Below, piece after piece: positions 5,674 through 46,633 of a stretch of 64,000 nt of DNA. Numbering within the stretch: the stretch's first letter is position 1; each line of letters opens with the position of its first letter. The notes beneath the pieces are model-generated. The model had not been told where the DNA came from, did not search any database, and was given only the letters and a program-made list of their open reading frames with translations. The stretch comes from Thermoanaerobaculia bacterium (GTDB taxonomy: Bacteria > Acidobacteriota > Thermoanaerobaculia > Gp7-AA8). Made by a program: the position numbers and the translations under genes. The DNA is taken from contig DATLXH010000026.1 in assembly GCA_035576005.1 (NCBI GenBank), forward strand, positions 4,229 through 68,228, written 5' to 3'.

Positions 5674-5678
5674 CACGA

Positions 5679-6434
5679 TCAGGCCGACGCGCCTCCATCG
5701 ACTGTCAGGACCTGCCCGGTGATGCCCGATGCCTCGTCGGACAGAAGAAATGCGATGCACGAAGCAACTTCATCGGGCGTGATCGCCCGGCGCATCGGAA
5801 TCATCCGCACCATCTCTTTGCGAGCCTCGGCAGGGATGTCGGCGGTCATCTCCGTGTCGACGAGGCCCGGAGCCACGCAATTGACACGGATTCCGCTCCG
5901 GCCAACTTCGCGAGCAAGTGAGCGGGTCATCGCGATGACAGCGCCTTTGGCCGCCGCGTAATTGGTCTGGCCCGCAATGCCTCTCATTCCGGAAAGGGAC
6001 GCGACATTGACGATCGATCCCGATCGCTGCTTCATAAATGCCGGCAGCACGGCGCCGGTGGTCCAGAAGGTTCCGTCCAGGTTCGTGTCGAGAACCTCGC
6101 GCCATTGCTCTGGTGTCATGTTGTACATGAGCGAGTCCCTTCGGATCCCCGCGTTGTTCACGAGGCCGTCTACTTTGCCGAAACGTTCGATGACCTGTTG
6201 AACGATCTCTTCCATACGACCCTTGTCGCGTACATCCCCTTCGAACGCACTGACCGCGGGAGTTTCCTGTGAGTCGGCCTGCGCCGCAGCCACGTCGGAG
6301 AGCAGTCGATCGGCGGCGTCCTTCCCGCTCATGAATGTGAACGCGACAGCATGCCCCGCGCTGAGCAATTTCAGAACTGTCGCCCTGCCGATGCCCCGCG
6401 ACCCCCCGGTAACAAGAATCGTTCGACGGGCCAT
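5679..6434 (-). CDS. Short-chain dehydrogenase/reductase (FabG-like 3-oxoacyl-ACP reductase family)
   Basis: ILVTGGSRGIGRA Rossmann motif, NNAGI, YAAAKGAV catalytic YxxxK. Ends 6 bp upstream of the GT2 start, so probably an operon. Confidence 0.75.
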   Translation of the reverse strand: MARRTILVTGGSRGIGRATVLKLLSAGHAVAFTFMSGKDAADRLLSDVAAAQADSQETPAVSAFEGDVRDKGRMEEIVQQVIERFGKVDGLVNNAGIRRDSLMYNMTPEQWREVLDTNLDGTFWTTGAVLPAFMKQRSGSIVNVASLSGMRGIAGQTNYAAAKGAVIAMTRSLAREVGRSGIRVNCVAPGLVDTEMTADIPAEARKEMVRMIPMRRAITPDEVASCIAFLLSDEASGITGQVLTVDGGASA

Positions 6435-6596
6435 GAGTGTGGTGTCTCGCAAATCGCTATGCATCCTTCGGCGCGCTGCAGGCCCGCTTGCTTCGCCGCC
6501 GCTCCTCAACGATGCCCCGCATCGTCTCCGTCACATCGACTCGCCATCGGCCCTCCATCACGCCGAATAATGCCCAGCTATTTGCGAGATACCACA

Positions 6597-10628: not shown

Positions 10629-10755
10629 AAGCTTTGGAGTGCGGCAGCCGCAGCTGCCGCTTTCCGGGTCATCCCGCGGATCAGATATCGGAGTCTCGAC
10701 TTGCCTCTCTCGTCGGACTCAAAAGCGGCAGCTGCGGCAGCCGCACTCCAAAGGG
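10629..10755. repeat. Nested palindromic hairpin repeat (family B) copy a: GCTTTGGAGTGCGGCAGCCGCAGCTGCCGCTTT ... AAAGCGGCAGCTGCGGCAGCCGCACTCCAAAG
   Basis: Two self-palindromic arms in inverted orientation around a ~57-bp spacer. Same structure at 19225-19358, 32885-32978 and 46511-46633. Confidence 0.7.
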
Positions 10756-10858: not shown

Positions 10859-13588
10859 ATGATGAATAAGGTTCTTACTTTGATTTTCGGCTCGAAGCAT
10901 GAGCGCGATGTCAAAAAGATGTTGCCGGTTGTGGCCGAGATCAACGCGCTCGAGCCTTCGATCGTCCCGCTCACGGATGAACAGCTGCGAGGCAAGACGC
11001 TCGAGTTTCGTGCCCGCCTTCGACCTGCCGTTGAGGCGATCGAGACCCTTCAGCGGGAGAGCCCCGCCGAGGAAGCAGAGATCAAACTTGCAAAAGAAGA
11101 GCTGAAGGCTCAGCTCGACGCACTCCTGCCAGAGGCGTTCGCTGTCTGTCGCGAGGCAGCGAAGAGAAGTGTCGGCATGCGGCATTTTGACGTCCAGTTG
11201 ATGGGAGGCATCGTCCTGCACAACGGCAGGATCGCAGAGATGAAAACCGGCGAGGGGAAGACCCTCATGGCGACCTTGCCGGTCTATCTGAATGCTCTGA
11301 CCGGACGCGGTATGCACGTGGTGACGGTGAACGATTACCTCGCGCGGCGGGACTCTGAGTGGATGGGTCGGGTCTACAAGTTTCTAGGTCTGAGCGTGGG
11401 AGTGATCCAGAACAATCACGGCGACCGCGAACGGCAGATCGCCTATGGCTCGGACGTCACGTACGGGACGAACAACGAGTTCGGATTCGACTACCTTCGC
11501 GACAACATGAAGTTCGACCTCGAGGCCATGGTGCAGCGAAGTCACGTGTACGCGATCGTCGACGAGGTCGACTCGATCCTGATTGATGAGGCGCGGACTC
11601 CACTCATCATCAGCGGCCCCTCTGAGGAGTCTGTCGACAAGTACTACTCGGTCGATCGAATCATTCCGCGTCTGGTCAAAGAGAAAGACTTTCAGATCGA
11701 CGAGAAGCAGCATACGGCTGTCCTGACTGAAGAGGGCGTGCTGCACGCCGAACAGCTGCTCGGGATCGAAAACCTTTACGACCCCGCGAACATGGACGTG
11801 CTCCATCACGTGAACCAGGCGTTGAAGGCACACACGCTGTACCGCGTGGACGTCGATTACGTGGTGACCGACGGCGAGGTGATCATCGTCGACGAATTCA
11901 CGGGAAGGCTGATGCCGGGCCGACGCTGGTCCGATGGACTGCATCAGGCAGTCGAAGCGAAGCAGGGGGTAAAGATCGAAGCAGAGAATCAGACGCTCGC
12001 CACGATCACGTTCCAGAACTACTTCCGCATGTACGAGAAACTCGGTGGTATGACCGGCACGGCCGACACAGAGGCCGCCGAGTTCGACAAGATCTACAGC
12101 CTCGAAGTCGTGGTGGTTCCTTCCAACAGGCCGATGGTCCGAGACGATCGTGCGGACCTCGTGTATCGCACGGAGACGGAAAAGTTCGCAGCGATCGTGG
12201 AAGAAATCAAAGAGCGACACAGTGAGGGGCAGCCGAGCCTTGTCGGTACCATCTCGATCGAAAAGTCCGAGCATCTTGGATCTCTGCTCAAGAAGCAGGG
12301 CATACCGCACGTCGTCCTGAACGCGAAGTACCACGAACGTGAGGCGGAGATCGTGGCGCAGGCTGGTCACAAAGGCGCCGTCACGATCGCGACGAACATG
12401 GCGGGGCGCGGCACAGACATCCTCCTCGGTGGCAACCCGGAGTATCTCGCGCTGCAGAAATCGAAAGGCGTCGAGGATCTTCTGGAGCGTAAGACGATCG
12501 AGGAAAAGATCAAGACGGCGTGGGATGAGGAGCATGCCGAGGTTGTCGATGCCGGCGGTCTGCACATCATCGGCACGGAAAGGCACGAGTCACGAAGAAT
12601 CGACAACCAGCTCAGAGGTCGTGCGGGAAGGCAGGGTGATCCTGGCTCGTCCCGTTTCTATCTTTCCCTCGAAGACGATCTCATGCGGATCTTCGGTTCC
12701 GATCGGATCTCCGGATTGATGCAGCGGCTTGGGATGGAAGAAGGAGTGCCGATCGAGCATGGAATGGTCAGCCGCGCCATCGAGCGTGCACAGAAACAGG
12801 TGGAGGGCCGGAACTTCGAGGCGCGGAAACATCTGCTCGAATATGACGACGTGATGAACAAGCAGCGGGCGTCGATCTACTCGCTGCGTCGCAACATCCT
12901 CGAGGGACGCGAGGGGCGTGAATACATTCTCAACGCCTCCGAAGATATCGTCGATTACCTCATCGAGACGCACCTGCCGCAGGATAATTCTTCCGAAGAG
13001 CCGAACCTGACTGAGTTCTGGGCCGAGATTTACGACTTCTTCGGGATCGATCCGAAATCTCTAACGTTCGACGCCGCGACGGCTGGTCGGGAGACCTTCA
13101 AATCCGAGCTCATTGACGCTTCCAGGAAGCGTTACGAAGAAAAAGAAGCGATGGTCGGCGCTGAGCTCATGCGCGTCCACGAGAAATATCTTCTCCTCCA
13201 GGTCATTGACGCTCAGTGGAAGGATCACTTGCTGGTTCTCGATCATCTGAAAGAAGGGATCGGCCTGCGCGGCTACGGTCAGAGGGATCCGCTCATTGAG
13301 TACAAGCGCGAGTCGTTCGATCTTTTCCAGTCGATGATGGAGCGAATCCAGGATCGCGTGGTCAAGTACCTCTGGAAGATCGAGGTGATGGTGGAGGGAC
13401 GCGAGGAGGCCGCACCTGCCCGTCTTCGCCGTGCGCCCGAGCCGCCGCGCCAGAACCTGATGTTTTCAGGAGCCCCGAAGGAGATGCAGGCCCCGATCAA
13501 GCGGCGCGAGGACAAGGTAGGACGAAACGATCCCTGTCCGTGCGGCTCGGGAAAAAAGTACAAAAAGTGCCATGGCACTGCCGCCTAG
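10859..13588 (+). CDS. secA: Preprotein translocase ATPase SecA, with C-terminal zinc-binding SEC-C motif
   Basis: [24 protein letters not shown]-like motor motifs, and [14 protein letters not shown] at the C-terminus. Confidence 0.95.
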
Positions 13589-13628
13589 GATCGAGGTGGG
13601 GACCTCGTAGTCATCCTCGAGGCTCACG

Positions 13629-13735
13629 ATGGCACCAGTCCTGCCGCCCGGCCGGCGTAAGCGCGAGGCACCAGTCTGCGGCCCAGCCGCCGAAGGCGCG
13701 AGGCACCAGTCTGCAGCCCAGCCGCCGAAGGCGGC
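13629..13735. repeat. Three tandem ~35-bp repeats (GGCACCAGTCTGCGGCCCAGCCGCCGAAGGCGCG)
   Basis: Direct reading of 13629-13735. The 3' part (CCGCCGAAGGCGGCG) is the reverse complement of the GCCGCCTTCGGCGGC hairpin in the 81-bp units. Confidence 0.6.
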
Positions 13736-13935
13736 GAAAGATCCGTAGCACCCGGCTTCAGCCGGGTGAATGCGGCGGAGAAAATCGAACAGCCCGCGGT
13801 AGCGGGCGACAGAGTGGCGGGTGCGTGGATGCCCGTGACGCGGTTCTGCCGCCCGCTCACGCGGGCTGTCTGGCTTGGCCGCTCTTCACCCGGCTGAAGC
13901 CGGGTGCTACGAATCTTTCGCCGCCTTCGGCGGCG
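13721..13935. repeat. Large inverted arrangement: hairpin module (CACCCGGCTGAAGCCGGGTG + ATCTTTCGCCGCCTTCGGCGG) in reverse orientation at 13721-13768 and forward at 13886-13935, about 115-bp spacer
   Basis: ccgccgaaggcggcgaaagatccgtagcacccggcttcagccgggtg versus cacccggctgaagccgggtgctacgaatctttcgccgccttcggcgg. Confidence 0.6.
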
Positions 13936-14320
13936 AGAGTGTCCTGGCTCGGTCCCTCCTGGGGGAAGGTCGGACCCAGGTGTGGCGCCGCGAATCTTTC
14001 GCCGCCTTCGGCGGCGAGAGTGTCCTGGCTCGGTCCCTTCTGGGGGAAGGTCGGACCCAGGTGTGGCGCCGCGGATCTTTCGCCGCCTTCGGCGGCGGGA
14101 GTGTCCTGGCTCGGTCCCTTTCTGGGAGAGGGTCGGACCCAGGTGTGGCGCCGCGGATCTTTCGCCGCCCTACGGCGGCGGGAGTGTCCCGGGCTCGGTC
14201 CCTTTTGGGGAAGGTTGGACCCCAGGTATGGCGGCGCGGATCTTTCGCCCCCCCCTACGGCGACGGGAGCGTCCGGAAGTGCGTTCCGGGGGAGATCAGA
14301 CCCCAGGCTTTGCCGCGGCC
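13910..14320. repeat. Tandem array of about five ~81-bp repeats (CGAATCTTTCGCCGCCTTCGGCGGCGAGAGTGTCCTGGCTCGGTCCCTCCTGGGGGAAGGTCGGACCCAGGTGTGGCGCCG), decaying toward the 3' end
   Basis: Units start near 13910, 13991, 14072, 14153 and 14236. Non-coding: lies between convergent secA and dedA. The 81-bp period explains the open frames on both strands. Confidence 0.7.
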
Positions 14321-14997
14321 TCGCGTTTGGACTCTCTGCTCGCTCTCCACCATTCGATGACACCCGGCAGAATGGACAGGATGATCACCACGATGATCAC
14401 GATGTGAATGTGCTTTTCAGCCTCGGGGAAGAGTTTGATGAGCGAGTAGCCAATCATGGTCATGCTGAAGACCCAGGCGATTCCGCCCACGATGTTGAAC
14501 ATCGCGAAGCGCCTGTAGGGCATGTTCGCCACGCCCGCGATCACGGGCGCGAATGTGCGAATCACCGGTACGAAGCGCGCGATGATGATGGTCTTTCCGC
14601 CGTGCTTTTCGTAGAACTCCTGCGTCTTGAGCAGATGCTTCTTCTTGAAAAGAAGTGAGTCGTCACGCTTGAAGAGTGCCGGACCGAATCGCTTTCCGAT
14701 CAGGTAGCCGGTCGCGTCACCGAGGATCGCGCAGGTGATGAGCAGAAGATTCAGATAGACGATATTCAGGTCGCCTTTCGCCGCGAAGAGCCCTGCTGTG
14801 ACAAGGAGCGAGTCTCCCGGCAGGAAGAAGCCGATCATCAGACCGGTCTCGACGAAAACGATGATTGCAAGACCGACGTACCCGCCCCATTGAATGAGCC
14901 CCTGGACGTCAGTTAGGAAGTGGAACGTGTCGCGAAGCCAGTTCAAACGGAAACTCCTGTAGAGATCTGAGTGCTGTGGCGACGATGCGATAGGCAC
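14296..14997 (-). CDS. DedA/TVP38-family membrane protein
   Basis: GFFLPGDSLLVTAGLFAAKGDLNIVYLNLLLITCAILGDATGYLIGKRFG, the DedA signature. Confidence 0.8.
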   Translation of the reverse strand: MPIASSPQHSDLYRSFRLNWLRDTFHFLTDVQGLIQWGGYVGLAIIVFVETGLMIGFFLPGDSLLVTAGLFAAKGDLNIVYLNLLLITCAILGDATGYLIGKRFGPALFKRDDSLLFKKKHLLKTQEFYEKHGGKTIIIARFVPVIRTFAPVIAGVANMPYRRFAMFNIVGGIAWVFSMTMIGYSLIKLFPEAEKHIHIVIIVVIILSILPGVIEWWRASRESKREAAAKPGV

Positions 14998-15078: not shown

Positions 15079-15256
15079 CGGCCACTAGTGGAGGGTGTCG
15101 CAAATCCCCCGGCATTCCTCGGGGATGATGAATGGTCGGATGCGAGGCGGCGCGACGCAGGCAATGCGGACATTGTTGAGGAGCGCCAACGAAGCAGCCG
15201 GCCGTTCAGCGCCCCGAGGAATGCTGGGGATTTGCGACACCCTCCACTAGCAGAGC
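15079..15256. repeat. About 178-bp element bounded by perfect ~40-bp inverted repeats (CTAGTGGAGGGTGTCGCAAATCCCCGGCATTCCTCGGGG) with TA at both ends. A further imperfect IR lies immediately upstream (15035-15078).
   Basis: Arms at 15079-15117 and 15218-15256 are exact reverse complements. Sits in the divergent region between dedA and the halogenase-like gene. Confidence 0.6.
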
Positions 15257-15308
15257 GTGGAGCAGTTTGCACGCTACCGGAAGAGCCGTATCATCGCGAC
15301 TGTTCGAG

Positions 15309-16871
15309 ATGGCGATGACCCCTGAGCGCTATGACGTGATCATCCTCGGAGGAGCCTTCAGCGGCGCCTCCGCAGCGATTCTGCTCAGAAGGGAGTTGCC
15401 TGAGCTTCGCGTCCTGGTGGTCGAGAAGGCCACTGCATTCGACGCGAAGGTTGGAGAAGCGACAACGGAAATGTCGGCCATGTTCCTCACGCGCCGTCTC
15501 GCTTTGTGGCAGCACCTCGAGCGCGAGCATCTTCCCAAGGAAGGTTTGCGCTACTGGTTCCAGAACGAAAAGGTGACCTCGCACGAGAACGCGACGGAAG
15601 CCGGTGGTTTCCTGAGAAGCTCAGTACCAGCATTTCAGTTGCGGCGTGATGTGCTCGATGAGCATCTTCTCGCGACCGCAGTCGCCGAAGGGGCGGAGCT
15701 CATGCGCCCGGCACGGGTCAAAGAGGTCAACCTCGCCGACTTCGACAGCGAAGTGATCGTGGAGAGTGACGACGCAACCACCACGCTCCGAACCCGCTGG
15801 GTGCTCGATGCCACAGGACGGGTCACGTACCTCGGCAAGCGGCTTGGGATCATCGACCGCAACGATGATCATCCTACGGCGTCGATCTGGGGACGTTGGA
15901 CGGGAGTCCGCAATATTGACGACCTTGCGGCACGTAGTGGGGGAGGCCTGTCCGCGCGGAACATTGGCTCACGCCGTCTCGCGACGAATCACTATACCGG
16001 CTACGGCTACTGGATCTGGGTCATCCCCCTGGGCAATGGGGAAACGAGCATCGGGATTGTTTTCGATAAACGCCTCGTCGATCTTCATCAGAGTAAGGAC
16101 CGCGAAGCCGACTACATCGCTTTCATGCGGGCGATCCCGTCGCTGGCGCAACTGCTCGATGGGGCGACACTCCGCTCGGACGATTTCCGGTTCTACGGAC
16201 AGCTTGCCTACTCGGCGCGTCAGTACATGGGCAGAGGCTGGGCGCTCCTCGGCGACGCAGCGTCGTTCCTCGATCCCTACTATTCGCCGGGGCTCGACCA
16301 CGCCGCCTTTTCCGTCGAGGCGACACTGGGGATCATCAAAGCTGATCAGCAATCGCGTCCTCTTGATTCGCTGATTCGGGAACACAATGAAACGTTTGTC
16401 CGGTCGTACCATCGATTCTTCGAGGCCGCTTATCGGGACAAGTACTTTTACATGGGCGAGGCTGATCTGCTGGCGGCTTCGTTCATCCTCGATACCGCGC
16501 ATTACTACATCTTCCTTGTGGTTCCCGCGTACCGCTTCATGAAGAAATTTTTCTGGATGCCGGTTCTCGGCCCCAAGCCCGCATTTTTCAGCTATCACCT
16601 CATGAGTCTTTACAATCGCCGCTTCAAGCGAATCGCTCTGGCGCGACGCGAGCGAGGTGAGGGCGAGCGACGAAACGACGGCCGACGGTACAAGGCGTAC
16701 TTCAACCTGAACATGGCACCGTTCCAGATGGTGCTTCGCGGCTTGAAGATGTGGGCCGGCGCGGAAATCGACCTGCTACGCCTCGTATTGACGAAGAGGA
16801 AGAGCGGGGTCGCACAGCGGTTTGGCAGCGATGCGCCGGTTCCGGCGACGACGATCGAGCCCGGTCGCTGA
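15309..16871 (+). CDS. Flavin-dependent halogenase-like FAD oxidoreductase
   Basis: N-terminal dinucleotide fold YDVIILGGAFSGASAAILL. GYGYWIWVIPLGNGETSIG contains the WxWxIP motif characteristic of flavin-dependent halogenases. Start chosen at MAMTPERYDV; an in-frame Met exists at 15267. Confidence 0.6.
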   Translation: MAMTPERYDVIILGGAFSGASAAILLRRELPELRVLVVEKATAFDAKVGEATTEMSAMFLTRRLALWQHLEREHLPKEGLRYWFQNEKVTSHENATEAGGFLRSSVPAFQLRRDVLDEHLLATAVAEGAELMRPARVKEVNLADFDSEVIVESDDATTTLRTRWVLDATGRVTYLGKRLGIIDRNDDHPTASIWGRWTGVRNIDDLAARSGGGLSARNIGSRRLATNHYTGYGYWIWVIPLGNGETSIGIVFDKRLVDLHQSKDREADYIAFMRAIPSLAQLLDGATLRSDDFRFYGQLAYSARQYMGRGWALLGDAASFLDPYYSPGLDHAAFSVEATLGIIKADQQSRPLDSLIREHNETFVRSYHRFFEAAYRDKYFYMGEADLLAASFILDTAHYYIFLVVPAYRFMKKFFWMPVLGPKPAFFSYHLMSLYNRRFKRIALARRERGEGERRNDGRRYKAYFNLNMAPFQMVLRGLKMWAGAEIDLLRLVLTKRKSGVAQRFGSDAPVPATTIEPGR

Positions 16872-16949
16872 GTCAGTCGCGGCGAAGCGCATGTGTCGTG
16901 AACGCTGCCGTGCGTCGCGCCTTCCGGGAGACCACGGCACACGCAAAAC

Positions 16950-18338
16950 CTACCGAATTGAATCGAGCTCCGTTAGCGCTGCCTTCCTGACCTTCCCCCG
17001 CTCATCACGGGGGATCGAGTCGATGAGCTTGATGATTCTCGGCACTTTGTGGGACGAGAGTTTCTGTCTGCAGTGACCGCGGATCTGCTCGCGCGTAATG
17101 GCCGGATCCGCGACCACCGCGGCCGCGACGACCTCGCCCCTCGCCCCGGCAGGCTCGCCATAAACTTTTGCATCTCGCACTCCGTCCAGCTGCATCAGAA
17201 CGGCTTCTACCTCGCGCGGGTTCACCTTCTTTCCAGCTGTGTTGATCTGGCCGCCGACGCGTCCAACCAGCTGAACGGATCCATCACTGTGGAGGCTTGC
17301 GATATCGTCTGTGATGAAGCCGGCTGAGGAGAATCGTTCCTCCTCCCCCGGGGTGCCGCCAAAGTAGCCCCGGGCAACCGCGTCGCTCCTGACGACCATC
17401 CGGCCCGACTCCACATCGGTTGAGAGCTCGACTCCATCCATGGCTGAGCCGACCTCATTCCTCTCCGCGGCAGCGCCAGCACGGTCGTATGTAATGCCGC
17501 CGGTCTCACTACATCCATAAAAGGTATGAATCTCTTTGCCGAACCGTTCGCGGAAGCGGTGAGAAACTCTCGCCGTGAGGGGCGCTCCTGCCGAGATAAA
17601 GGTTCGCACCGTCTCGAACTGCCCGTCACTCGCGAGCGTCTGAGAGAGCAGGTCAAACATCAAAGGAATCCCCGGCAGGACCGTGCAGCTGAAGCGGTTG
17701 GAAAGCTCGATGAGAGAAATCGGAACGTAGTCGTTTGAGATTACGATCGACGTTCCCTGCAGCAGAAGGGGCGTCACCAGATTTGAAAACCCGTACGAGT
17801 GGGAGAAAGGAATGGCTCCCAGATTCCGATCGTCGGCACGAATCAGCATCGTGGAGGTGATGTTTCTGCAGTCGGCAATCAGGCAGCTTTCGGGGGTGAT
17901 GATCGCTCGCGGGTCACCCGTGGAGCCTGATGTCAGTTTCAGAACAGCCGTGCCCTCAGCGGCTCGCCGTGAAGCCGCCGGTTGAACAGATGTCACTTCG
18001 CGGGGAGATCCGCGGATGACTGCTTTGACTCCGAGTCGATCAATCACCTGGGCCACCTCGGAGGAGCGACTGTCCCGGTCGATGGGGAGCGCGACCGAAT
18101 GCAACCTCAATGTGGCGAGGATGGCCGCGACGAAATCCACGGAATTCGGGAGCTGGATCGCTACGACTGTGCCCTCCGCGACGCCTCTCGAGGATAAAGT
18201 TGAAGCGAGCTCGTCGGCCCTGTCTAGAAGCTGACGTCGTGAGGTCGAAAGGAAAGACGAGCCGTCGATCAATGCCGGGGCGCCGGGGTCTTCCTCTGCG
18301 AGTGCCACGAAGGTGGTGTAGATCGACTCGATCGTCAT
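16950..18338 (-). CDS. AMP-dependent synthetase/ligase (acyl-AMP / acyl-ACP ligase family)
   Basis: AMP-binding core LKLTSGSTGDPRA, YGCSETGG, and the C-terminal GKVRK lysine region. Confidence 0.8.
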   Translation of the reverse strand: MTIESIYTTFVALAEEDPGAPALIDGSSFLSTSRRQLLDRADELASTLSSRGVAEGTVVAIQLPNSVDFVAAILATLRLHSVALPIDRDSRSSEVAQVIDRLGVKAVIRGSPREVTSVQPAASRRAAEGTAVLKLTSGSTGDPRAIITPESCLIADCRNITSTMLIRADDRNLGAIPFSHSYGFSNLVTPLLLQGTSIVISNDYVPISLIELSNRFSCTVLPGIPLMFDLLSQTLASDGQFETVRTFISAGAPLTARVSHRFRERFGKEIHTFYGCSETGGITYDRAGAAAERNEVGSAMDGVELSTDVESGRMVVRSDAVARGYFGGTPGEEERFSSAGFITDDIASLHSDGSVQLVGRVGGQINTAGKKVNPREVEAVLMQLDGVRDAKVYGEPAGARGEVVAAAVVADPAITREQIRGHCRQKLSSHKVPRIIKLIDSIPRDERGKVRKAALTELDSIR

Positions 18339-18496
18339 CTTGGAGTGCTGATGTTACGACATGGACGTGGAACAGCTCCGCGGCCCGGGATCCCATCCAC
18401 GATTTTGTCTCAGTCTGTGGCTGGACCGTTACGGGACGCTCGCTCGATGGGCTAGACTGCGAGTCTCTATTCATCGCATTCCGTTGGAGGAAAAGA

Positions 18497-18778
18497 TTGT
18501 CTGACCGTGATCAGCTGAAGCAAAAGTTGAAGGAGTTACTGATCGATCGACTCAAGTTCGAGGATATGACAGCCGCGGACATCGGGGACGATGAGCCGCT
18601 GTTCGAAGGTGGCCTTGCTCTCGATTCGATCGACGCTCTCGAGATCGTGGTCATGCTCGAGAGTGAATTTGGAATCAAGGTCAAAAATGAGACGTCGGCA
18701 CGCGACTCCTTCAAATCCATTTCCTCTCTCGCTGATCTGGTAGACCGGAAGACGAAAGAAGCGCAGCTTCAGGGGTAA
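18497..18778 (+). CDS. Acyl carrier protein (TTG start, GGAGGAAAAG RBS)
   Basis: LDSIDALEIVVMLESEFG phosphopantetheine-attachment Ser motif. The six-frame ORF 18110..18778 is a read-through; true start set by RBS and length (93 aa). Confidence 0.75.
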   Translation: MSDRDQLKQKLKELLIDRLKFEDMTAADIGDDEPLFEGGLALDSIDALEIVVMLESEFGIKVKNETSARDSFKSISSLADLVDRKTKEAQLQG

Positions 18779-18783
18779 GACAA

Positions 18784-19173
18784 TTGTCTTCCTGGCTCTC
18801 GACGCTGCCACATCAGATCCCGTTCAGGGCGGCCTCGCGGGTCACCCGGATGGATGAGGTCTCCGTTGACGGAATCTATCTCTGCAGTTCCGCTGATGCC
18901 TTGACCGAGGGCGGGCCTGTCCCTGTGTGGATGGTGATAGAAGCGATGGCTCAGATAGCGGGAGGTCTCGCGTTCCGTGACCGTCCCGGCCATGGATACC
19001 TCTCGGCCATTGACGACGCCTCCATCGACGGGCCGCTGGAGAGTGGAGAGAGTCTCGAGCTGAAGGTCGAGATGGAGGCAAACTTCGGGGGGATTTTTCG
19101 CTTCAGGGGCCGTGCATTTCGAGCGGGCTCGGAGTGTGCGCGAGCGAAGTTTTATCTGGCCACGCCTCCGTAG
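18784..19173 (+). CDS. Hotdog-fold dehydratase (FabA/FabZ-like, ApeI/ApeP-like)
   Basis: 129 aa. VPVWMVIEAMAQIAGGLAF resembles the hotdog central-helix region of 3-hydroxyacyl-ACP dehydratases. Starts 6 bp after the ACP. Confidence 0.55.
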   Translation: MSSWLSTLPHQIPFRAASRVTRMDEVSVDGIYLCSSADALTEGGPVPVWMVIEAMAQIAGGLAFRDRPGHGYLSAIDDASIDGPLESGESLELKVEMEANFGGIFRFRGRAFRAGSECARAKFYLATPP

Positions 19174-19224
19174 AGTTCCACCTTCAGCGCTTGCGCCCGG
19201 TCAGAAGTGTTCAAACGCGAGGGC

Positions 19225-19358
19225 GAAGCTTTGGAGTGCGGCAGCCGCAGCTGCCGCTTTTGCTTCGAACTCGGTTGACATCGACGGCCAACGGAGATTT
19301 CATCCCGGGAGTGACACAGAAAGCGGCAGCTGCGGCTGCCGCACTCCAAAGGCTTCGC
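19225..19358. repeat. Family B nested palindromic repeat, copy b (GGCGAAGCTTTGGAGTGCGGCAGCCGCAGCTGCCGCTTT ... AAAGCGGCAGCTGCGGCTGCCGCACTCCAAAGGCTTCGCC)
   Basis: Located in the 283-bp gap between the dehydratase and KS genes, inside the biosynthetic locus. Confidence 0.7.
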
Positions 19359-19456
19359 CCGCCTCCGAAGGTCGTTGCAGTAGGAATCCGGCATCGGGAT
19401 GACGTCTGGTGTCGTGCGTGTTGAGCTGAGTACCTCAGACCTTTTGTCTCAAGATC

Positions 19457-20683
19457 ATGCGCAAACCAGACACGAACATCAGAGTTGCTGTTACCGGGAT
19501 CGGGATCATTTGCTCGATTGGAAGTAATGCCGACGAGGTGTGGACCGCAATTGAACAGGCAAGGGCGGGCATCGGCCCGCTGACTGCGTTCGGCGACGAG
19601 ACATTCACGACAGACATCGCCGCCGAGGTCCCTGCAGACTTTGCGAGCGATCTGTTTGCCCGCGCGTCGGAGATGAAGCGTCTGTCACGAACCGACCTCC
19701 TTGCGATCAAGGCTGCCCAGGAAGCGGTCACTCAGGCTGATCTCGATGCGAACACTCTGATTCTTCGAGAACGGACGGTCGTGTGTACAGGAACTTCGAC
19801 GGGCGGTCTGCTCGAGGGTGAATCATACTTTTTCGAGCGACTCGTCCGTGGAGCCGGGAAGACGAGCGCTTCCCGCGTCCTGCAGCAGCCGACATCAGGA
19901 CCATCTGACGCCGTCGCCAGAACGCTCGGACTCGGCGGCGGCGTTTTATCGAACGCAACCGCATGTGCCTCAGGCGGCGCGGCCATCGGAATGGCTGCCG
20001 ATCTTTTGCGCTCAGGTCATGTTGACTCGGCGTTGGCGGGTGGAAGCGATGCGCTATGCCGGTTGACCTACAGTGGGTTCAATGTTCTGGGAGCAGTGGA
20101 TCCGGCTGCATGCGCGCCGTTCAGCGCCGATCGTAAAGGGATCACTCTGGGGGAAGGCGCGGCCTACGTCGTGCTCGAACGATGGGACGACGCGGTTGCC
20201 CGCGGTGCCCGGATCCTGGCCGAGCTGGGTGGTTACGGTGCGTCATGTGATGCCCACCACCCGACTGCGCCGGCCGAGGATGGTCGCGGAGCGTCGGCGG
20301 CAATGATGGGGGCGCTACTCGATAGCGGATCGACTGGATCGGACATCGATTACATCAACGCACATGGAACGGGAACTCTCCTCAATGACTCTGCCGAGAC
20401 GCGGGCCATCGTGACGACCCTGGGCAGCGAGGTTCCCGCGTCTTCAACGAAATCCTTCTTCGGGCACACTCTCGGCGCTGCCGGAGGGCTGGAAGCGGTG
20501 ATCACAGTCCTCGCTCTGCAGCATCAGATGGCGCCCCCTACGCTGAGGCTTCAGACGGCTGCTCAAGACTGCGCTCTCGACTACATTCCGCTCACGCCGC
20601 GCCCTATGGTCATCAGGCAGGCGCTGTCAAACACATTTGGCTTCGGCGGGAGCAACGTCTCATTGCTGTTTCGGGCGAGTTGA
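19457..20683 (+). CDS. Beta-ketoacyl-ACP synthase (KAS II / type II PKS KS-alpha-like)
   Basis: Active-site Cys in SNATACASGGAAIG; His motifs NAHGTGT and FGHTLGAAGG. Confidence 0.85.
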   Translation: MRKPDTNIRVAVTGIGIICSIGSNADEVWTAIEQARAGIGPLTAFGDETFTTDIAAEVPADFASDLFARASEMKRLSRTDLLAIKAAQEAVTQADLDANTLILRERTVVCTGTSTGGLLEGESYFFERLVRGAGKTSASRVLQQPTSGPSDAVARTLGLGGGVLSNATACASGGAAIGMAADLLRSGHVDSALAGGSDALCRLTYSGFNVLGAVDPAACAPFSADRKGITLGEGAAYVVLERWDDAVARGARILAELGGYGASCDAHHPTAPAEDGRGASAAMMGALLDSGSTGSDIDYINAHGTGTLLNDSAETRAIVTTLGSEVPASSTKSFFGHTLGAAGGLEAVITVLALQHQMAPPTLRLQTAAQDCALDYIPLTPRPMVIRQALSNTFGFGGSNVSLLFRAS

Positions 20684-21903
20684 TGAAGAGCGGTTCGCGT
20701 GTCGCGATCGAAGGGGTCGGTCTGGTCGCTCCTGGTGCTACCGGCGTCGAACAGTTCGAACAACTCCTGATGGAAGGTCGCAGCGGAATCGCAATGGTCG
20801 ACCGGTTTGACACGTCTGGCCAGAATGCTCACAAGGCGGGTCTGATCAGAGGGTTTCAGGCCCGTCAATTCATTGCTCCCGGCAAGATCCGCCGGATGAA
20901 CACCCTCTCGCGTCAGGCGGTCGCGGCCACGAAGATGGCTCGCACCGACGCAGCGATCGAGACTAATCGTTACGATCCTTCAGAAATCGGGGTCGCGCTC
21001 GGCACTGCGTTCGGCCCGGTTCAGACATCGGTTGACTACATGCGTGAGTATGTCGAGCAGGGAAGCTCACTGGCTCCGCCGCAGCTTTTCGCAGAGTCGG
21101 TTGCGAATGCGCCGGGAAGTCATATCGCAATCGAATTCGATCACCGAGGATTCAATCTCACATTGACGCAACGGGAGTCGTCAGCTCTTGCAGCCACGAT
21201 GTTTGCCTGTTCGCAGATTGTGAAAGGGACAGTGAAAGCGGCGATGGCGGTTGGCGTCGAAGAGCTCAATGAGATTACGTTCAGCGTACTCGACAAGATC
21301 GGCGCGCTGTCGTCGAATGGAGCGAAGGAAGAGGCGTCGCGACCGTTCGATCGTGATCGCGACGGAATGGTCGTCGGCGAGGGAGCGGCCGCTTTCTATC
21401 TCGACGGATCTCCGCGGGATGGCGAGACATCCTACGGGTACTTTGCCGGATTCGGCATCGCGCGGGACAGGACGGCGTCCATCTCTAATTGGGGGACCGG
21501 CGCGAGCGCGGTGGTCCGCGCGATGAGCGACGCTTTGCGTGACGCGGAGATCACGATCGGCGAAGTTGATGCGATCTGGGCCTCCGCCAATGGAAGTCTC
21601 GCGGGCGACAGGCTCGAGGCCTCTGCGCTCCGCCAGATGTTCGGAAACTCAGTACCGCCCGTCGTCGCGACCAAGGGCTACTTCGGTGAATACGCGGGCG
21701 CCGGCGCACTTCATCTTGTTACGGCCGCAGTAGCGATGCGGAGGCAGTGGATCCCCGCGTCCCTCGGTTTCGAGGAAAGCGAAATCGGCCTGGAGTTGCC
21801 AGTCAACATTGCTGGCCGGCCCAGTCCGCTGAGGAACATCCTCGTCAACTCGCTCTCTGCCGGTGGTGGAATCGTTTGTGCGATCCTTTCCCGACAGTCA
21901 TGA
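20680..21903 (+). CDS. Ketosynthase-like protein lacking the active-site Cys (chain-length-factor / KS-beta-like)
   Basis: KS fold (VGVEELNEI, DRDGMVVGEGAAAFYL), but the Cys position reads LTLTQRESSALAA (Gln/Arg in place of Cys). ATGA overlap with the upstream KS. Confidence 0.65.
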   Translation: MMKSGSRVAIEGVGLVAPGATGVEQFEQLLMEGRSGIAMVDRFDTSGQNAHKAGLIRGFQARQFIAPGKIRRMNTLSRQAVAATKMARTDAAIETNRYDPSEIGVALGTAFGPVQTSVDYMREYVEQGSSLAPPQLFAESVANAPGSHIAIEFDHRGFNLTLTQRESSALAATMFACSQIVKGTVKAAMAVGVEELNEITFSVLDKIGALSSNGAKEEASRPFDRDRDGMVVGEGAAAFYLDGSPRDGETSYGYFAGFGIARDRTASISNWGTGASAVVRAMSDALRDAEITIGEVDAIWASANGSLAGDRLEASALRQMFGNSVPPVVATKGYFGEYAGAGALHLVTAAVAMRRQWIPASLGFEESEIGLELPVNIAGRPSPLRNILVNSLSAGGGIVCAILSRQS

Positions 21904-22571
21904 AAATCCTGGGCGTCATTCCCGCATTCAACGCCGAACAGACGGTGGGCGGTCTTGTCAGAAAATCGCTCGCTCACCTGAGTGATGTGATCGTCGTTGA
22001 CGACGGCTCGTCGGACAAGACCGGCTACGAAGCCGCTAACGCCGGGGCGATCGTGTTGCGGCACGAAGTGAATCGGGGCAAGGGCGCCGCGCTCAAGACA
22101 GCGTTTGAGTACGCGACCTCGCACGAATACGATGCCGCCATAACGCTCGATGCGGATGGACAGCATCTTCCCGAGGACATTCCCAAGCTCAGTCGTGCCT
22201 TCAGTGAGACGGGCGGAGATCTGATCATCGGGAGCCGGCGTCACCTCTTCGCGCAAATGATTCCTCGCCGAAGGATGGCCAACAAATTTTCCTCGTGGGC
22301 TATCTCAGTCGGATCCGGTGCGAAGGTTGACGACTCGCAGAGCGGCTATCGACTCTACAGCGCCAGGCTGATGAAGGCTCTACCAATTCGCTCATCTGGA
22401 TTCGATATGGAGAGTGAAGTTATCGTGCGTGCGGCGCGGAGCAAAATGAAGATCGTGATGATCCCGATCGAGCTCGGCTTCGTGGATGGTTTACAGACCA
22501 GTTACTACCGCCCGATACGCGACACCTTCAAGATTCTCGGGACGGCGCTGCGCACTCGATTCCTCGGTTGA
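21900..22571 (+). CDS. Family 2 glycosyltransferase (dolichyl-phosphate mannosyltransferase-like, ApeJ-like)
   Basis: MKILGVIPAFNAEQT...VIVVDDGSSDKTG...ITLDADGQH. 4-bp overlap with the CLF-like gene. Confidence 0.75.
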   Translation: MKILGVIPAFNAEQTVGGLVRKSLAHLSDVIVVDDGSSDKTGYEAANAGAIVLRHEVNRGKGAALKTAFEYATSHEYDAAITLDADGQHLPEDIPKLSRAFSETGGDLIIGSRRHLFAQMIPRRRMANKFSSWAISVGSGAKVDDSQSGYRLYSARLMKALPIRSSGFDMESEVIVRAARSKMKIVMIPIELGFVDGLQTSYYRPIRDTFKILGTALRTRFLG

Positions 22572-22782
22572 GCCGGCGCCGCCGCAAGCGCGTAGAACGC
22601 TGATGAAGTCTTGACACGACGACTTCATCAGAAGGACCGAGGATCTGGTCGGGGCCTCGGCAACAGTCAACGATTCCTGACCCTCAGTGTAAGGCCCCCC
22701 ACTCAGATCCTCCGCTCGACGCTCGGGAGGACTCCGGCGAGGAACACGTTCCTCGTGTCGCAATGCGGGGTAGAATCGCGCT

Positions 22783-23469
22783 GTGACGATCCCCGCAATC
22801 CGATTCAGGAAATTCAGCCTCTTTGCCGACCTGGATGACGTTGAGCTGGGAGCGATTGCTGCGCTCGCGAAGCCACGCAGCTATTCGAAAGACGATGTGA
22901 TCTTTCACGAGGATGAGACAGGTGACGTCTTTTGTCTCATCATCTCGGGTCAGGTGAAAGTAACGATGATCTCGCCGGAAGGTAAGGAGATCATTCTCTC
23001 GATGCTTGGAGAGGGCGAGTTTTTTGGAGAGATGGCGCTCTTCGACGACCAGCCGCGCTCGGCGACGATCGTCGCCACGCAGGCTCTCGAGCTCCTGACT
23101 CTCTGGAGATCAGATTTCCTGAAGATCCTCAGCGAGAATTTCTCTATCACCAGAAAGGTCCTCGTGGTGATCTCGCGGCGACTCAGGCATGCGTCTCACA
23201 GAATTGAATCGCTGGCAACGATGGATGTCTATGGCCGCCTGGCGCGATTTTTCCTCGACCTCGCGAAAGAGAACGGGAAAGAGGTGGGTAATGGATTCAT
23301 CGCTGTCATCCGTCCGACGCACCAGGCGATTGCGAACACAATCGGAACCTCGCGAGAAACGGTTTCACGTCTGATTCATGACCTCATCCAGCAGAACCTG
23401 CTGATTTCAGAGGGCAAAACCATCTACCTTCGCAAGACTGCCCTGGATCACTTCAGGAGTGGTTTGTAG
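22783..23469 (+). CDS. Crp/Fnr-family transcriptional regulator (cNMP-binding + HTH)
   Basis: cNMP-binding GEFFGEMALFDDQPRSATIVA; C-terminal HTH SRETVSRLIHDL. Confidence 0.8.
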   Translation: MTIPAIRFRKFSLFADLDDVELGAIAALAKPRSYSKDDVIFHEDETGDVFCLIISGQVKVTMISPEGKEIILSMLGEGEFFGEMALFDDQPRSATIVATQALELLTLWRSDFLKILSENFSITRKVLVVISRRLRHASHRIESLATMDVYGRLARFFLDLAKENGKEVGNGFIAVIRPTHQAIANTIGTSRETVSRLIHDLIQQNLLISEGKTIYLRKTALDHFRSGL

Positions 23470-23545
23470 TGCTGCGGACTGGGGTCGGTTCGGCTGACGT
23501 GCAATTGACAGCGTCCGCGACGACGCGCTGCGCTGTCACGAGCTG

Positions 23546-24139
23546 ATGGTGTCTTCGTTGTCGCCGCAGGGCCGGCACGGCGTCCTCACAATCCCGAACG
23601 GCATCTCGCTGCTCCGACTTCTTATCGTTCCATTCGTTCTCCTTTTTGCCCACCGCGGAGAGTTCAGGCTCGCTTTCTGGCTCTTCGTGTTCGCGGCGAT
23701 CACGGATGGGGTCGACGGCTGGCTTGCGCGACGACTGAATCAAAGGTCGTCAGTCGGGGCGATGCTCGATCCAGCGGCTGACAAGGTCATGGCCATCCTC
23801 GGCTTTGTCATGTTCACGTTGAGCGACCGGATACCGTTCCGCCTCCCGCTCTGGTTGACGTTCACGATTTTCGTGCGTGATTTCATGATTGTTGTATTTG
23901 CGTACCTGCTGTTCACCAGGATCCGGATCAAGCGTTTCCCGCCGACCATCTCAGGCAAAGTCTCGACTGTGGTTCAGGTCGTTACGCTCGCGGCCGTGAT
24001 CGCGGTCAACGCTTTCTCCGGGATCGGCTGGGAGGGTGTCCAGATGCTTTTCAAGGTCGCGCTCGTCACCACGCTCTTTTCAGCCTTCGGCTACCTGCGG
24101 CGCGCAGAGATCATGTTGAAACTCGAAAGGGCGGAGTAG
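23546..24139 (+). CDS. CDP-alcohol phosphatidyltransferase family protein
   Basis: DGVDGWLARRLNQRSSVGAMLDPAADK matches D-G-x2-A-R-x8-G-x3-D-x3-D. Confidence 0.8.
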   Translation: MVSSLSPQGRHGVLTIPNGISLLRLLIVPFVLLFAHRGEFRLAFWLFVFAAITDGVDGWLARRLNQRSSVGAMLDPAADKVMAILGFVMFTLSDRIPFRLPLWLTFTIFVRDFMIVVFAYLLFTRIRIKRFPPTISGKVSTVVQVVTLAAVIAVNAFSGIGWEGVQMLFKVALVTTLFSAFGYLRRAEIMLKLERAE

Positions 24140-24218: not shown

Positions 24219-24295
<77 letters not shown>

Positions 24296-24301
24296 ATCCC
24301 T

Positions 24302-24387
<86 letters not shown>

Positions 24388-32884: not shown

Positions 32885-32978
32885 GGGCGAAGCTTTGGAG
32901 GGCGGCAGACGCAGCTGCCGCTTTCTGTGTAGCGTCGCGATTTCACAAAAGAGGCAGCTATGCGGCTGTCGGAAGCGT
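32885..32978. repeat. Degenerate family B palindromic repeat, copy c (second arm decayed)
   Basis: ggcgaagctttggagggcggcagacgcagctgccgcttt, followed by an imperfect reverse arm. Immediately downstream of the rho stop. Confidence 0.5.
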
Positions 32979-46510: not shown

Positions 46511-46633
46511 GGCGAAGCCTTTGGAGTGCGGCAGCCGCAGCTGCCGCTTTCTGTGTCACTTCATGAAGCGGTTGATTCATCCGCGTTCGACTCAAAAGCG
46601 GCAGCTGCGGCTGCCGCACTCCAAAGCTTCGCC
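46511..46633. repeat. Family B nested palindromic repeat, copy d
   Basis: ggcgaagcctttggagtgcggcagccgcagctgccgcttt-43 bp-aaagcggcagctgcggctgccgcactccaaagcttcgcc. In the divergent purA/hutH intergenic region. Confidence 0.7.

Follow-up and report, generated by a model that had tools for sequence, protein, structure and literature searches.

A conserved ketosynthase/chain-length-factor cassette of Thermoanaerobaculia and its relation to aryl-polyene-type lipid pathways

What is made by a ketosynthase (KS) and a Cys-less KS partner whose genes lie, together with those for a carrier protein, an AMP-dependent ligase (AMP-ligase), a glycosyltransferase and a halogenase-like flavoprotein, amid the housekeeping genes of a soil acidobacterium? 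We addressed this question for a 64-kb stretch of DNA from a Thermoanaerobaculia bacterium (contig DATLXH010000026.1; G+C = 59%; hereafter the window, meaning the whole stretch analysed), whose flavin-dependent halogenase (FDH)-like protein is 100% identical to a protein on an NCBI 'Thermoanaerobaculia bacterium' contig of a metagenome-assembled genome (MAG). A reading made from the sequence alone (the sequence-only reading) had proposed here a compact, halogenase-linked KS/chain-length factor (CLF) locus resembling those for aryl-polyene (APE) or xanthomonadin biosynthesis. The Thermoanaerobaculia are abundant uncultured Acidobacteria of soil and sediment, and their lipids are almost unknown. 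We find that the window contains a real cassette conserved in this class, which most likely builds, by way of a reduced APE-type lipid pathway lying outside the APE family, a membrane lipid that would be halogenated in some species; we give this interpretation a probability of roughly one half.

Conservation and boundaries of the cassette

A profile search with the Cys-less KS partner, hereafter CLF, recovered 112 relatives in 185,579 species-representative genomes, and 80 loci were kept, all from Thermoanaerobaculia/Acidobacteriota MAGs. The related loci were mapped by calling open reading frames (ORFs) and labelling them with BLAST. The map that recurs begins with SecA, followed by an optional DedA-family gene on the minus strand, an optional gene for an FDH-family protein (FDH1), the minus-strand AMP-ligase gene, an optional gene for a second halogenase (Hal2), and then genes for an acyl carrier protein (ACP), a hotdog-fold protein, the KS, the CLF and a family 2 glycosyltransferase (GT2); beyond GT2 come optional minus-strand M28 peptidase and ParA genes, and then Crp, PgsA, tRNA, Tig and ClpP. 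The ACP, hotdog, KS and GT2 genes accompany the CLF in 62/63 species-level loci with enough flank, the AMP-ligase gene lies on the opposite strand in 48/49, and the position between SecA and the Crp-PgsA-tRNA-Tig-ClpP block is constant in the relatives. This arrangement is far beyond chance, and the conserved unit consists of a minus-strand AMP-ligase gene facing genes for an ACP, a hotdog protein devoid of the catalytic His, a KS, its Cys-less partner and a GT2. Across the relatives the proteins are identical to those of the window at ~70% (KS), ~75% (ACP), ~58% (CLF), ~57% (GT2), ~56% (ligase) and ~47% (hotdog); these values are comparable with those of the core genes on either side (SecA 76%, Tig 53%, ClpP 88%), which points to vertical inheritance under purifying selection. 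A single CLF homologue (P0213, 58% identical) is labelled 'Verrucomicrobiota bacterium' by NCBI, all others being from Acidobacteriota; misbinning or mislabelling probably accounts for this, not horizontal transfer. ORFs in the gaps of the related loci are variable, with no recurrent extra biosynthetic gene among them. As the sequence-only reading had noted, genes for a ketoreductase (KR), a thioesterase, MMPL and LolA are absent from the locus, and we find none in the 80 related loci either.

In the window, the nine ORFs of the sequence-only reading were all confirmed by ORF calling, Pfam and NCBIfam, with their domain families (Table 1). They had been described as co-oriented or tightly packed; the AMP-ligase gene, however, runs on the minus strand, convergent with the FDH1 gene and divergent from the ACP gene. 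Judged from the Shine-Dalgarno sequence and the lengths of homologues, the most likely ACP start is the TTG at 18497 behind a GGAGG, and the ACP stop is separated from the TTG start of the adjacent hotdog gene by 5 nt rather than the 6 bp first given. Of the ATGA overlaps claimed for the KS, CLF and GT2 genes, that at the CLF/GT2 junction is genuine, but the KS/CLF junction is TGATG, a 1-nt overlap (TTGA if translation begins at a TTG at 20680). Between the hotdog and KS genes there is a gap of 283 bp containing a palindromic repeat; this gap is not present in the related loci, where the median spacing is -14.

The boundaries of the cassette are set by what does and does not travel with it. 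The Crp/Fnr-family regulator and the PgsA-like phosphatidyltransferase had been counted as members of the locus; they move with the tRNA/Tig/ClpP backbone, are separated from GT2 by the opposite-strand M28 peptidase and ParA genes in most relatives, and are inverted together as a block in one locus (L065). For these reasons we do not include them in the cassette; nothing ties them to its product, and the phosphatidyltransferase is probably a housekeeping enzyme. The flanks are likewise housekeeping, with SecA upstream and tig, clpP, clpX, lon and engB downstream. Conversely, the original gene list had missed a DedA-family gene just upstream of, and divergent from, the FDH1 gene. Of the sequence-only reading, the KS/CLF locus itself is upheld, dedicated and ACP-dependent, furnished with an AMP-ligase and a GT2, kept as a unit in the relatives and having some specific affinity to APE clusters.

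The enzymes of the cassette

The AMP-ligase has intact core motifs (TSGSTG, YGCSET, GRVGG and ERGKV) and is presumed to be the starter-loading enzyme. The profiles and structures nearest to it are of generic kinds (FadD13, MatB, and oxalate-, feruloyl- and 4-chlorobenzoate-CoA ligases), and it is 25% identical to ApeH. For comparison with the APE system we calibrated NCBIfam models with the ape proteins of E. coli CFT073, by which NF006618 corresponds to ApeO, NF006587 to ApeR and NF006617 to ApeE. On the last of these the ACP scores 65.6 bits, just under the cut-off of 70 (E. coli ApeE, 89.5); it is 40% identical to E. coli ApeE, and its BLAST match to AcpP is 25 bits. It is probably a dedicated carrier of the ApeE type.

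The hotdog protein had been taken for a dehydratase, a label that closer comparison calls into question. It has no match in Pfam, including the ApeP-like and ApeI-like models that the FabZ of anammox bacteria does match, and it matches two FabZ models weakly (40 bits, 3e-10, cut-off 113; and 33 bits, cut-off 155). When it is aligned with FabZ structures from PDB, the loop bearing the His of the GHFP motif is seen to be deleted, with the Glu of EAMAQ kept, and a His at the catalytic position occurs in 0/69 members of the family. The loss of this loop makes the dehydratase label unsafe and the activity doubtful. Membership in the ApeP family, hinted at by BLAST (E = 0.009), was rejected since the hidden Markov model (HMM) of the hotdog family itself gives 22 bits with the anammox FabZ (amxFabZ), 3.4 bits with ApeP and no match with ApeI. 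A KR acting in trans was also considered in the sole FabG-like short-chain dehydrogenase/reductase of the window, a 3-oxoacyl-ACP reductase (5679-6509, minus strand; NF009466, 248 bits, cut-off 222). We rejected it: it lies 9 kb upstream of the cassette, adjoins an exopolysaccharide-type (EpsD-like) GT2 gene (4732-5760, minus strand), is not syntenic, and was not found in the flanking sequence examined for the related loci.

The KS retains an intact triad (Cys170, His303, His337), and its partner has lost the whole of it, with Glu165 for the Cys, and Asn303 and Glu336 for the two His. In an alignment of 18 family members the Glu and the Asn do not vary, a TQRESS motif is invariant across the family, and an FGE motif recurs in 5 family CLFs. 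The KS scores 368 bits on FabF (cut-off 494) and 302 bits on the ApeO-family model (cut-off 407; E. coli ApeO, 556 bits), and its identity is 35% with ApeO and 37% with E. coli FabF; it reaches 240 bits with Iga11 (highly reducing), 201 with the actinorhodin KS and 172 with AntD. The best solved relatives of the two proteins are chains of a single structure, the KS matching 9s5h_B at 262 bits and the CLF 9s5h_C at 170 bits (any FabF <=145). These chains could be placed through their ~90% identity to Brocadiaceae proteins, and are most likely the amxFabF2/amxFabFmut heterodimer of a preprint that gives no PDB code (bioRxiv 10.64898/2026.05.19.726425); the code '9S5H' is not cited in the literature searched. 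That pair forms a KS/CLF-like heterodimer, which decarboxylates malonyl-ACP and yields acetoacetyl-ACP (preprint bioRxiv 10.64898/2026.05.19.726425). The window KS shows 37% identity to amxFabF2 (261 bits, against 204 bits with ApeO and 194 bits with E. coli FabF), and the CLF 31% identity to amxFabFmut (177 bits). By analogy with the anammox pair, the KS and CLF would act as a physical heterodimer that controls chain length.

These similarities lend substance to an alternative that we regard as possible though doubtful, namely that the cassette is a specialised fatty-acid-type module like Cluster I of anammox bacteria, in which the KS/CLF pair would prime or elongate short acyl-ACPs on a dedicated ACP so as to furnish a core membrane lipid with an aliphatic chain of unusual kind, with the FDH-like, DedA, Crp and PgsA genes as mere neighbours. 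Besides the affinity of both subunits to amxFabF2/amxFabFmut and the shared order ACP-hotdog-KS-KS', it would account for the FabF-like character of the KS, the fatty-acyl and small-acid CoA ligases among the best profiles of the ligase, and the housekeeping-like conservation in a core-gene setting in every carrier. It fits less well with an ACP that is of ApeE type and not amxACP-like, and with a hotdog protein reaching only 22 bits against amxFabZ. In the Brocadiaceae locus the order ACP-FabZ-KS-KS' is followed by genes of FAD amine-oxidase-like and B12 radical-SAM type, neither of which is present here; further, the GT2 gene is translationally coupled to the CLF gene, and an aromatic-type carrier-protein halogenase between ligase and ACP in most relatives is hard to reconcile with a purely aliphatic product.

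The GT2 finds its best NCBIfam match in PpgS, a polyprenyl-phospho-GalNAc synthase (101 bits), followed by AglJ. It also matches the GT2 portion that makes up the N-terminal half of ApeJ, with 29% identity over 230 aa (79 bits), the acyltransferase half being missing. We found no transmembrane segment in it, and its sequence places it with the soluble DPM1/PpgS-type transferases of sugars to polyprenyl phosphate or lipid phosphate. APE lipids carry a GalNAc-phosphate-glycerol moiety, for which ApeJ has been proposed to add GalNAc to a phosphatidate-type intermediate that it then acylates (bioRxiv 10.1101/2020.12.19.423268). This role of ApeJ makes the PpgS/ApeJ-N-like GT2 of the cassette a plausible maker of a sugar-phosphate-lipid anchor.

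Halogenase-family flavoproteins, the proposed pathway and other features of the window

FDH1 matches Pfam Trp_halogenase (55 bits), and its best sequence matches in PDB (~1e-16: FasV/8zop, CmlS, CtcP and PltA; also ChlB4, Bmp2, PltM and CndH) are all halogenases except 3nix, an uncharacterised FDH-like flavoprotein. The WxWxIP motif noticed earlier is indeed present, as WIWVIP (235-240), and does not vary in either of two sets of family members (27 and 37). K77 (LPKEG), the candidate for the catalytic Lys that follows the GE(A/S)T motif in FDHs, is invariant in the family and aligns with the Lys of FasV (QRKYG), CmlS (VKK) and Hal2 (VPKHG), a placement that rests on sequence alignment, this region having a pLDDT <50 in the AlphaFold2 model. 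The FLDPYYSPG segment (320-328) is invariant too, as is the FAD motif GGAFSG (14-19), in which Ala replaces the third Gly of GxGxxG. In a Foldseek comparison of the model (pLDDT 72.5, pTM 0.75) with PDB, the top 45 matches are FDHs or 3nix, and PltM and CtcP (TM-score ~0.62) give the best full-length match, helical C-terminal domain included. FDH1 shares its modelled fold, Lys, WxWxIP and FxDPxxSxG with the known FDHs PltM, CtcP, FasV, CmlS, PltA and CndH at only 15-22% identity, and is unlike them in having GGAFSG and a family-specific helical C-terminus of 145 aa. Sequence and model together point to a divergent member of the FDH family rather than to a look-alike of the geranylgeranyl reductases, a possibility raised at the outset. 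No flavin reductase was identified in the locus or near FDH1.

The place of halogenation in the system is best judged from the distribution of the two flavoproteins. FDH1 adjoins the cassette in ~34/45 species loci and is absent from 11/45. At L002 (8850-11545) a DedA-FDH1 pair (68% and 70% identical to that of the window) stands beside DnaJ, without the KS/CLF cassette and far from any KS gene, which suggests that FDH1 may have a role independent of the cassette. Hal2 (~417 aa; e.g., L001 12930-14183) lies between AMP-ligase and ACP in 33-37/52 related loci and, with 212 bits to FasV, 209 to CmlS, 204 to CndH and 191 to PltA, has the sequence of a canonical carrier-protein-type ('variant B') FDH. 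It is absent from the window, where the interval between ligase and ACP is just 158 bp. Related loci have both, either or neither of FDH1 and Hal2, in combinations that vary between species, the pattern expected of optional tailoring enzymes. The description of the locus as halogenase-linked therefore needs qualifying: FDH1 is an FDH-family protein, but an accessory tailoring candidate and not part of the core, and with Hal2 missing any halogenation specified in the window could come only from this divergent protein.

The flavoproteins and the want of reducing enzymes also bear on a further explanation, one that we consider very unlikely and that is purely inferential, in which the KS/CLF pair leaves a short, unreduced poly-beta-keto chain on a fatty-acyl or aryl starter; the chain would either cyclise to a phenolic lipid (an acyl-phloroglucinol, resorcinol or pyrone) or take up halogen at the activated methylene, with the FDHs halogenating and the GT2 adding a sugar. 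A cassette that has no KR or functional dehydratase would suit such chemistry, as would the best full-length matches of the FDH1 model, PltM being a phloroglucinol halogenase and CtcP the other, and CmlS being the best halogenase profile for both FDHs. CmlS, a halogenase of the dichloroacetyl pathway of chloramphenicol, probably takes an activated aliphatic acyl group as its substrate. Yet there is no cyclase, aromatase or thioesterase in the cassette, the CLF has a Glu and not the Gln of the CLFs of aromatic type II polyketide synthases (PKSs), and the KS is nearer to FabF and Iga11 than to the actinorhodin KS or AntD.

The DedA-family gene is directly upstream in >=32/62 related loci (that is, at least 32), and where FDH1 is absent it adjoins the AMP-ligase gene on the same strand. 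We infer from this that it may be an accessory of the cassette, as a candidate transporter of lipid or polyprenyl phosphate. The divergent intergenic region between DedA and FDH1 in the window contains a unique 166-bp palindrome (15085-15250; a 25-nt perfect arm pair and 18-nt arms), with no further copy within the 64 kb, which may be an operator or a structured element.

Returning to the lipid pathway that we favour, what is established are the genes present, their active-site residues, their homologies and their conservation; beyond these, homology and gene order suggest the following steps. The ligase would adenylate a carboxylic-acid starter and load it onto the dedicated ApeE-type ACP; this starter is possibly an electron-rich aryl acid, since a carrier-protein-type halogenase sits between ligase and ACP in ~2/3 of the relatives, and where Hal2 is present the tethered starter would be halogenated. 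The KS/CLF heterodimer would then extend it by a limited, defined number of malonyl (C2) units. With no KR in the cassette and no catalytic His in the hotdog protein, keto-reduction and dehydration, if any, would be supplied by the housekeeping fatty acid synthase (FAS), and the hotdog protein might serve as a non-catalytic partner or a Glu-based thioester-handling protein. The PpgS/ApeJ-like GT2 would put a sugar on a lipid phosphate to give a polar anchor, and the product would stay in the membrane or envelope, with DedA as a candidate flippase.

A local source for an aryl starter was sought in the window and no aryl-acid supply gene was found. Tyrosine ammonia-lyase (TAL) is the starter source in flexirubin pathways; the aromatic amino-acid lyase at 46823-48340 (plus strand) was considered for this role and rejected, being HutH (691 bits, cut-off 539) and not TAL (FlxA-TAL 350, cut-off 700).

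Several observations weigh against the favoured pathway. No specialised model gives the KS as high a score as FabF does, the AMP-ligase bears no specific resemblance to ApeH or aryl-acid ligases, and the hotdog protein cannot use the His/Glu mechanism of FabZ; with no KR in the 80 relatives besides, a reduced or polyene chain would need enzymes acting in trans. The acyltransferase half of ApeJ has no equivalent in the GT2, and the cassette has neither an acyltransferase nor a thioesterase that could release the chain from the ACP. The region from SecA to ClpP is wholly syntenic, so adjacency is no proof that FDH1 and DedA share a function with the cassette; FDH1 occurs without it at L002, and some loci dispense with one or both FDH genes. 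The halogenase link is thus weak for the window itself, weaker than for its relatives. Finally, an isolate carrying the cassette was looked for and none was found, all named sources being MAGs.

We more tentatively advance, as a conjecture that may well fail, that the product belongs to a new class of membrane lipids of soil Thermoanaerobaculia, with a short KS/CLF-built acyl or aryl-acyl chain on a sugar-phosphate-lipid anchor, halogenated by one or two FDHs in most lineages, and that the Glu-type partner marks an ancient clade of chain-length factors of lipid pathways, by which the cassette, the ladderane Cluster I of anammox bacteria and APE-like export clusters would be linked. A six-gene cassette kept at one chromosomal position in at least 80 species-level genomes suggests a physiologically important envelope molecule. 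Should the product prove to be halogenated, it could offer a lineage biomarker and one of the few instances in which an enzyme halogenates a membrane lipid. The minimal gene set makes the cassette tractable for reconstitution in vitro, and it is a good target for this by virtue of its conservation in an abundant uncultured class, its optional halogenases and its kinship with the anammox KS/CLF pair. None of these findings overturns anything in current understanding.

The features of the locus are collected in Table 1. The window further contains a repeat resembling REP/MITE elements (repetitive extragenic palindromic sequences and miniature inverted-repeat transposable elements), built of two inverted, perfect 32-nt arms (CTTTGGAGTGCGGCAGCCGCAGCTGCCGCTTT), each a GC-rich hairpin, with a spacer of variable length (44-59 nt) between them. 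The 64 kb contain it three times in full (10632-10753, 19229-19351 and 46519-46626) and once as a half copy (32893-32924), the second full copy being the one that splits the hotdog and KS genes. HutH is flanked by another copy and by a cysteine dioxygenase-like gene (48560-49246), with neither hutU nor hutI seen near it. Aside from the two tRNAs, no RNA element was found in the window with Rfam at gathering thresholds, and scans for promoters and terminators gave nothing above shuffled expectation except the hairpins of the repeat. Given the position of the two tRNAs, the mechanical ORF call for tig (24262-) starts too early. An ORF at 13540-14290 (plus strand) overlaps the end of SecA, has no Pfam match and a low G+C at third codon positions (0.62), and is probably not a gene or a short lineage-specific one; at the equivalent position, locus L001 has toxin-antitoxin-like (NTP_transf_2/HepT) genes and a gene for a 602-aa IPTL-CTERM protein.

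Table 1. Features of the KS/CLF locus and its immediate neighbours, with positions in the window
Feature	Position	Strand	Remarks
DedA/VTT-family membrane protein	14296-14997	-	Pfam VTT_dom 76 bits; NCBIfam DedA PRK10847 202.6 bits, UptA 64 bits
FDH1, flavin-dependent-halogenase-family protein	15309-16871	+	520 aa; NCBI start 15315, giving 518 aa
AMP-dependent ligase	16950-18338	-	462 aa; Pfam AMP-binding 170 bits and AMP-binding_C
ACP, predicted ApeE type	18497-18778	+	93 aa; PP-binding 36 bits; DSID phosphopantetheine site
FabZ-like hotdog protein without catalytic His	18784-19173	+	129 aa; weak FabZ match
REP/MITE-like palindrome between hotdog and KS genes	19229-19351	none	repeated element, outside the pathway
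KS	19457-20683	+	408 aa; Pfam ketoacyl-synt N and C domains
CLF-like Cys-less KS partner	20683-21903	+	406 aa; Glu165 at the Cys position
GT2 glycosyltransferase	21900-22571	+	223 aa; Pfam Glycos_transf_2 80 bits; DDGSSD / DADGQH
Crp/Fnr-family regulator	22783-23469	+	cNMP_binding and HTH_Crp_2
PgsA-like CDP-alcohol phosphatidyltransferase	23546-24139	+	CDP-OH_P_transf 109 bits; TIGR00560 91.6 bits (cut-off 109.1)
tRNA-Lys(CTT)	24220-24295		between pgsA-like gene and tig
tRNA-Leu(TAG)	24302-24387		between pgsA-like gene and tig

Comparison with known systems

By the published operational definition, the core of an ape biosynthetic gene cluster comprises the KS apeO/R, an ACP, the CLF apeC, the dehydratase apeI/P, the KR apeQ and the transporter apeM (bioRxiv 10.1101/2020.12.19.423268), and the cassette does not have this complement. 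With the APE clusters of E. coli CFT073 (apeA-R) and Xenorhabdus doucetiae (ape) it has in common an ACP that is ApeE-like, a ligase that could load it, a KS with an inactive partner, a hotdog protein, an ApeJ-N-like GT2 and the type II logic of discrete enzymes. It is without counterparts of ApeR (the initiating KS), ApeQ (KR), ApeK (thioesterase), ApeD (lysophospholipid acyltransferase), ApeL/M/N (export) and ApeB, and has a single His-less hotdog protein where the APE clusters have the ApeI/ApeP pair; ApeR, ApeQ and ApeM/L/N are absent from the 80 related loci as well. The partner is a 406-aa FabF-like protein with no BLAST similarity (E = 9.2) to ApeC, which has 240 aa. Moreover, the cassette resides in the core chromosome of one class, whereas APE clusters are patchily distributed.

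It is here that the first proposal, of an APE/xanthomonadin-type locus, has to be weighed in its strict form: a bona fide pigment cluster, with an aryl acid carried on the ACP, iterative action of KS/CLF, KR and dehydratase to build a conjugated polyene, a halogenated head and a GT2-made anchor. The ACP, the GT2, the AMP-ligase and the 302 bits of the KS on the ApeO-family model speak for some such kinship, together with the carrier-protein-type aromatic halogenase beside the ACP in most relatives and the fact that the nearest relatives of KS, CLF, GT2 and Hal2 belong to clusters which, like those for APE, also encode a KR, an LpxL-like acyltransferase, MMPL and LolA. Most of the defining APE features are missing, however: the published core is incomplete, the CLF is full-length and unrelated to ApeC, the KS stays below the ApeO cut-off and does better on FabF, the sole hotdog protein is neither ApeP- nor ApeI-like and has no catalytic His, and no aryl-acid supply gene was found, the lyase being HutH. 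We consider such a pigment cluster unlikely; the observation behind the first proposal is essentially right, and its interpretation partly so.

The xanthomonadin cluster of Xanthomonas brings together an AMP-ligase, ACP, dehydratase, KS, GT2 and halogenase-like gene, and xanthomonadin is a brominated aryl polyene, a membrane-bound halogenated pigment. Such clusters also encode XanB2 (a 3-/4-hydroxybenzoate synthase), a KR (XanH), acyltransferases and MMPL/LolA export; no counterparts of these are present at the cassette locus. In the literature searched we found no paper linking Acidobacteria, aryl polyenes and halogenases, and none describing the cassette.

Cluster I of anammox bacteria (amxACP-amxFabZ-amxFabF2-amxFabFmut; KustE3603-3606; PDB 9s5h/9s5i) has the same gene order as the cassette, and in both systems the KS partner is without the whole Cys-His-His triad. 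At the Cys position Val or Thr is found in the anammox partner and an invariant Glu in the window family; the GHFP His, lost from the window hotdog protein, is retained in amxFabZ; and the two ACPs are unrelated at the BLAST level. Cluster I has no AMP-ligase, GT2 or halogenase, continuing instead with the FAD amine-oxidase-like and B12 radical-SAM genes.

In a library of 1.84 billion proteins, the Thermoanaerobaculia CLFs form a single cluster at 50% identity (576 bits), and the next match drops to 353 bits. At that level stand fused KS-CLF proteins of ~820 aa (P0364, P0365 and similar), with an active KS as N-terminal half and a Cys-less C-terminal half; the other matches below the family (<=353 bits) are stand-alone partners, and fused and stand-alone versions alike carry a (Q/H/N)(R/K)E motif. 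In a neighbour-joining (NJ) distance tree, which has no support values, all Cys-less partners fall in one clade. That the Glu-for-Cys partner, amxFabFmut and the partners from APE-like clusters share this clade suggests that KS/CLF heterodimers, so far demonstrated in lipid-type pathways only in anammox bacteria, are widespread in such pathways.

A metagenome scan with the CLF family returned mostly the same cassette, with 12 divergent loci and no close relatives of P0369, the closest stand-alone CLF outside the family; two other contexts, types A and B, could be distinguished. Type A resembles the anammox cluster, with genes for radical SAM, KS, KS' and FAD oxidase. Four metagenome contigs (L119, L130, L158 and L161) have a B12 radical SAM, a KS, a Cys-less KS and an FAD amine-oxidase-like gene, their KS and KS' being 33-45% identical to the Brocadiaceae pair, from which it appears that a Cluster-I-like module may not be confined to anammox bacteria.

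Type B (L143, L154, L155 and L162) combines a Hal2-like FDH, a KS, a Glu-type CLF, a FabG-like KR, an ApeE-like ACP and a GT2 with an LpxL-like acyltransferase, MMPL, LolA, B12 radical-SAM enzymes, a methyltransferase and a polysaccharide deacetylase, and would by its sequence be an export-equipped, APE-like lipid cluster. It contains the closest CLF relatives outside the family (35-37% in L154, L155 and L162, 31% in L143), with an NKE/NRE-ASS motif that includes the Glu; its KS (39%), GT2 (33-39%, relative to that of the window) and Hal2 (38-39%) are likewise the closest outside the family, and in the tree the Thermoanaerobaculia KS and CLF are next to type B sequences. It is unlike the cassette in encoding the KR, acyltransferase, MMPL, LolA, radical-SAM, methyltransferase and deacetylase proteins, and an AMP-ligase and a His-less hotdog protein were not seen within the type B sequence examined. 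The sequence-only reading had allowed for a reduced or novel variant, and this suggestion is borne out, the nearest non-family relatives of KS, CLF, GT2 and halogenase all residing in these larger clusters. Set beside these systems, the Thermoanaerobaculia cassette is best classed as an uncharacterised, reduced variant of APE-type/type II FAS-PKS lipid clusters.

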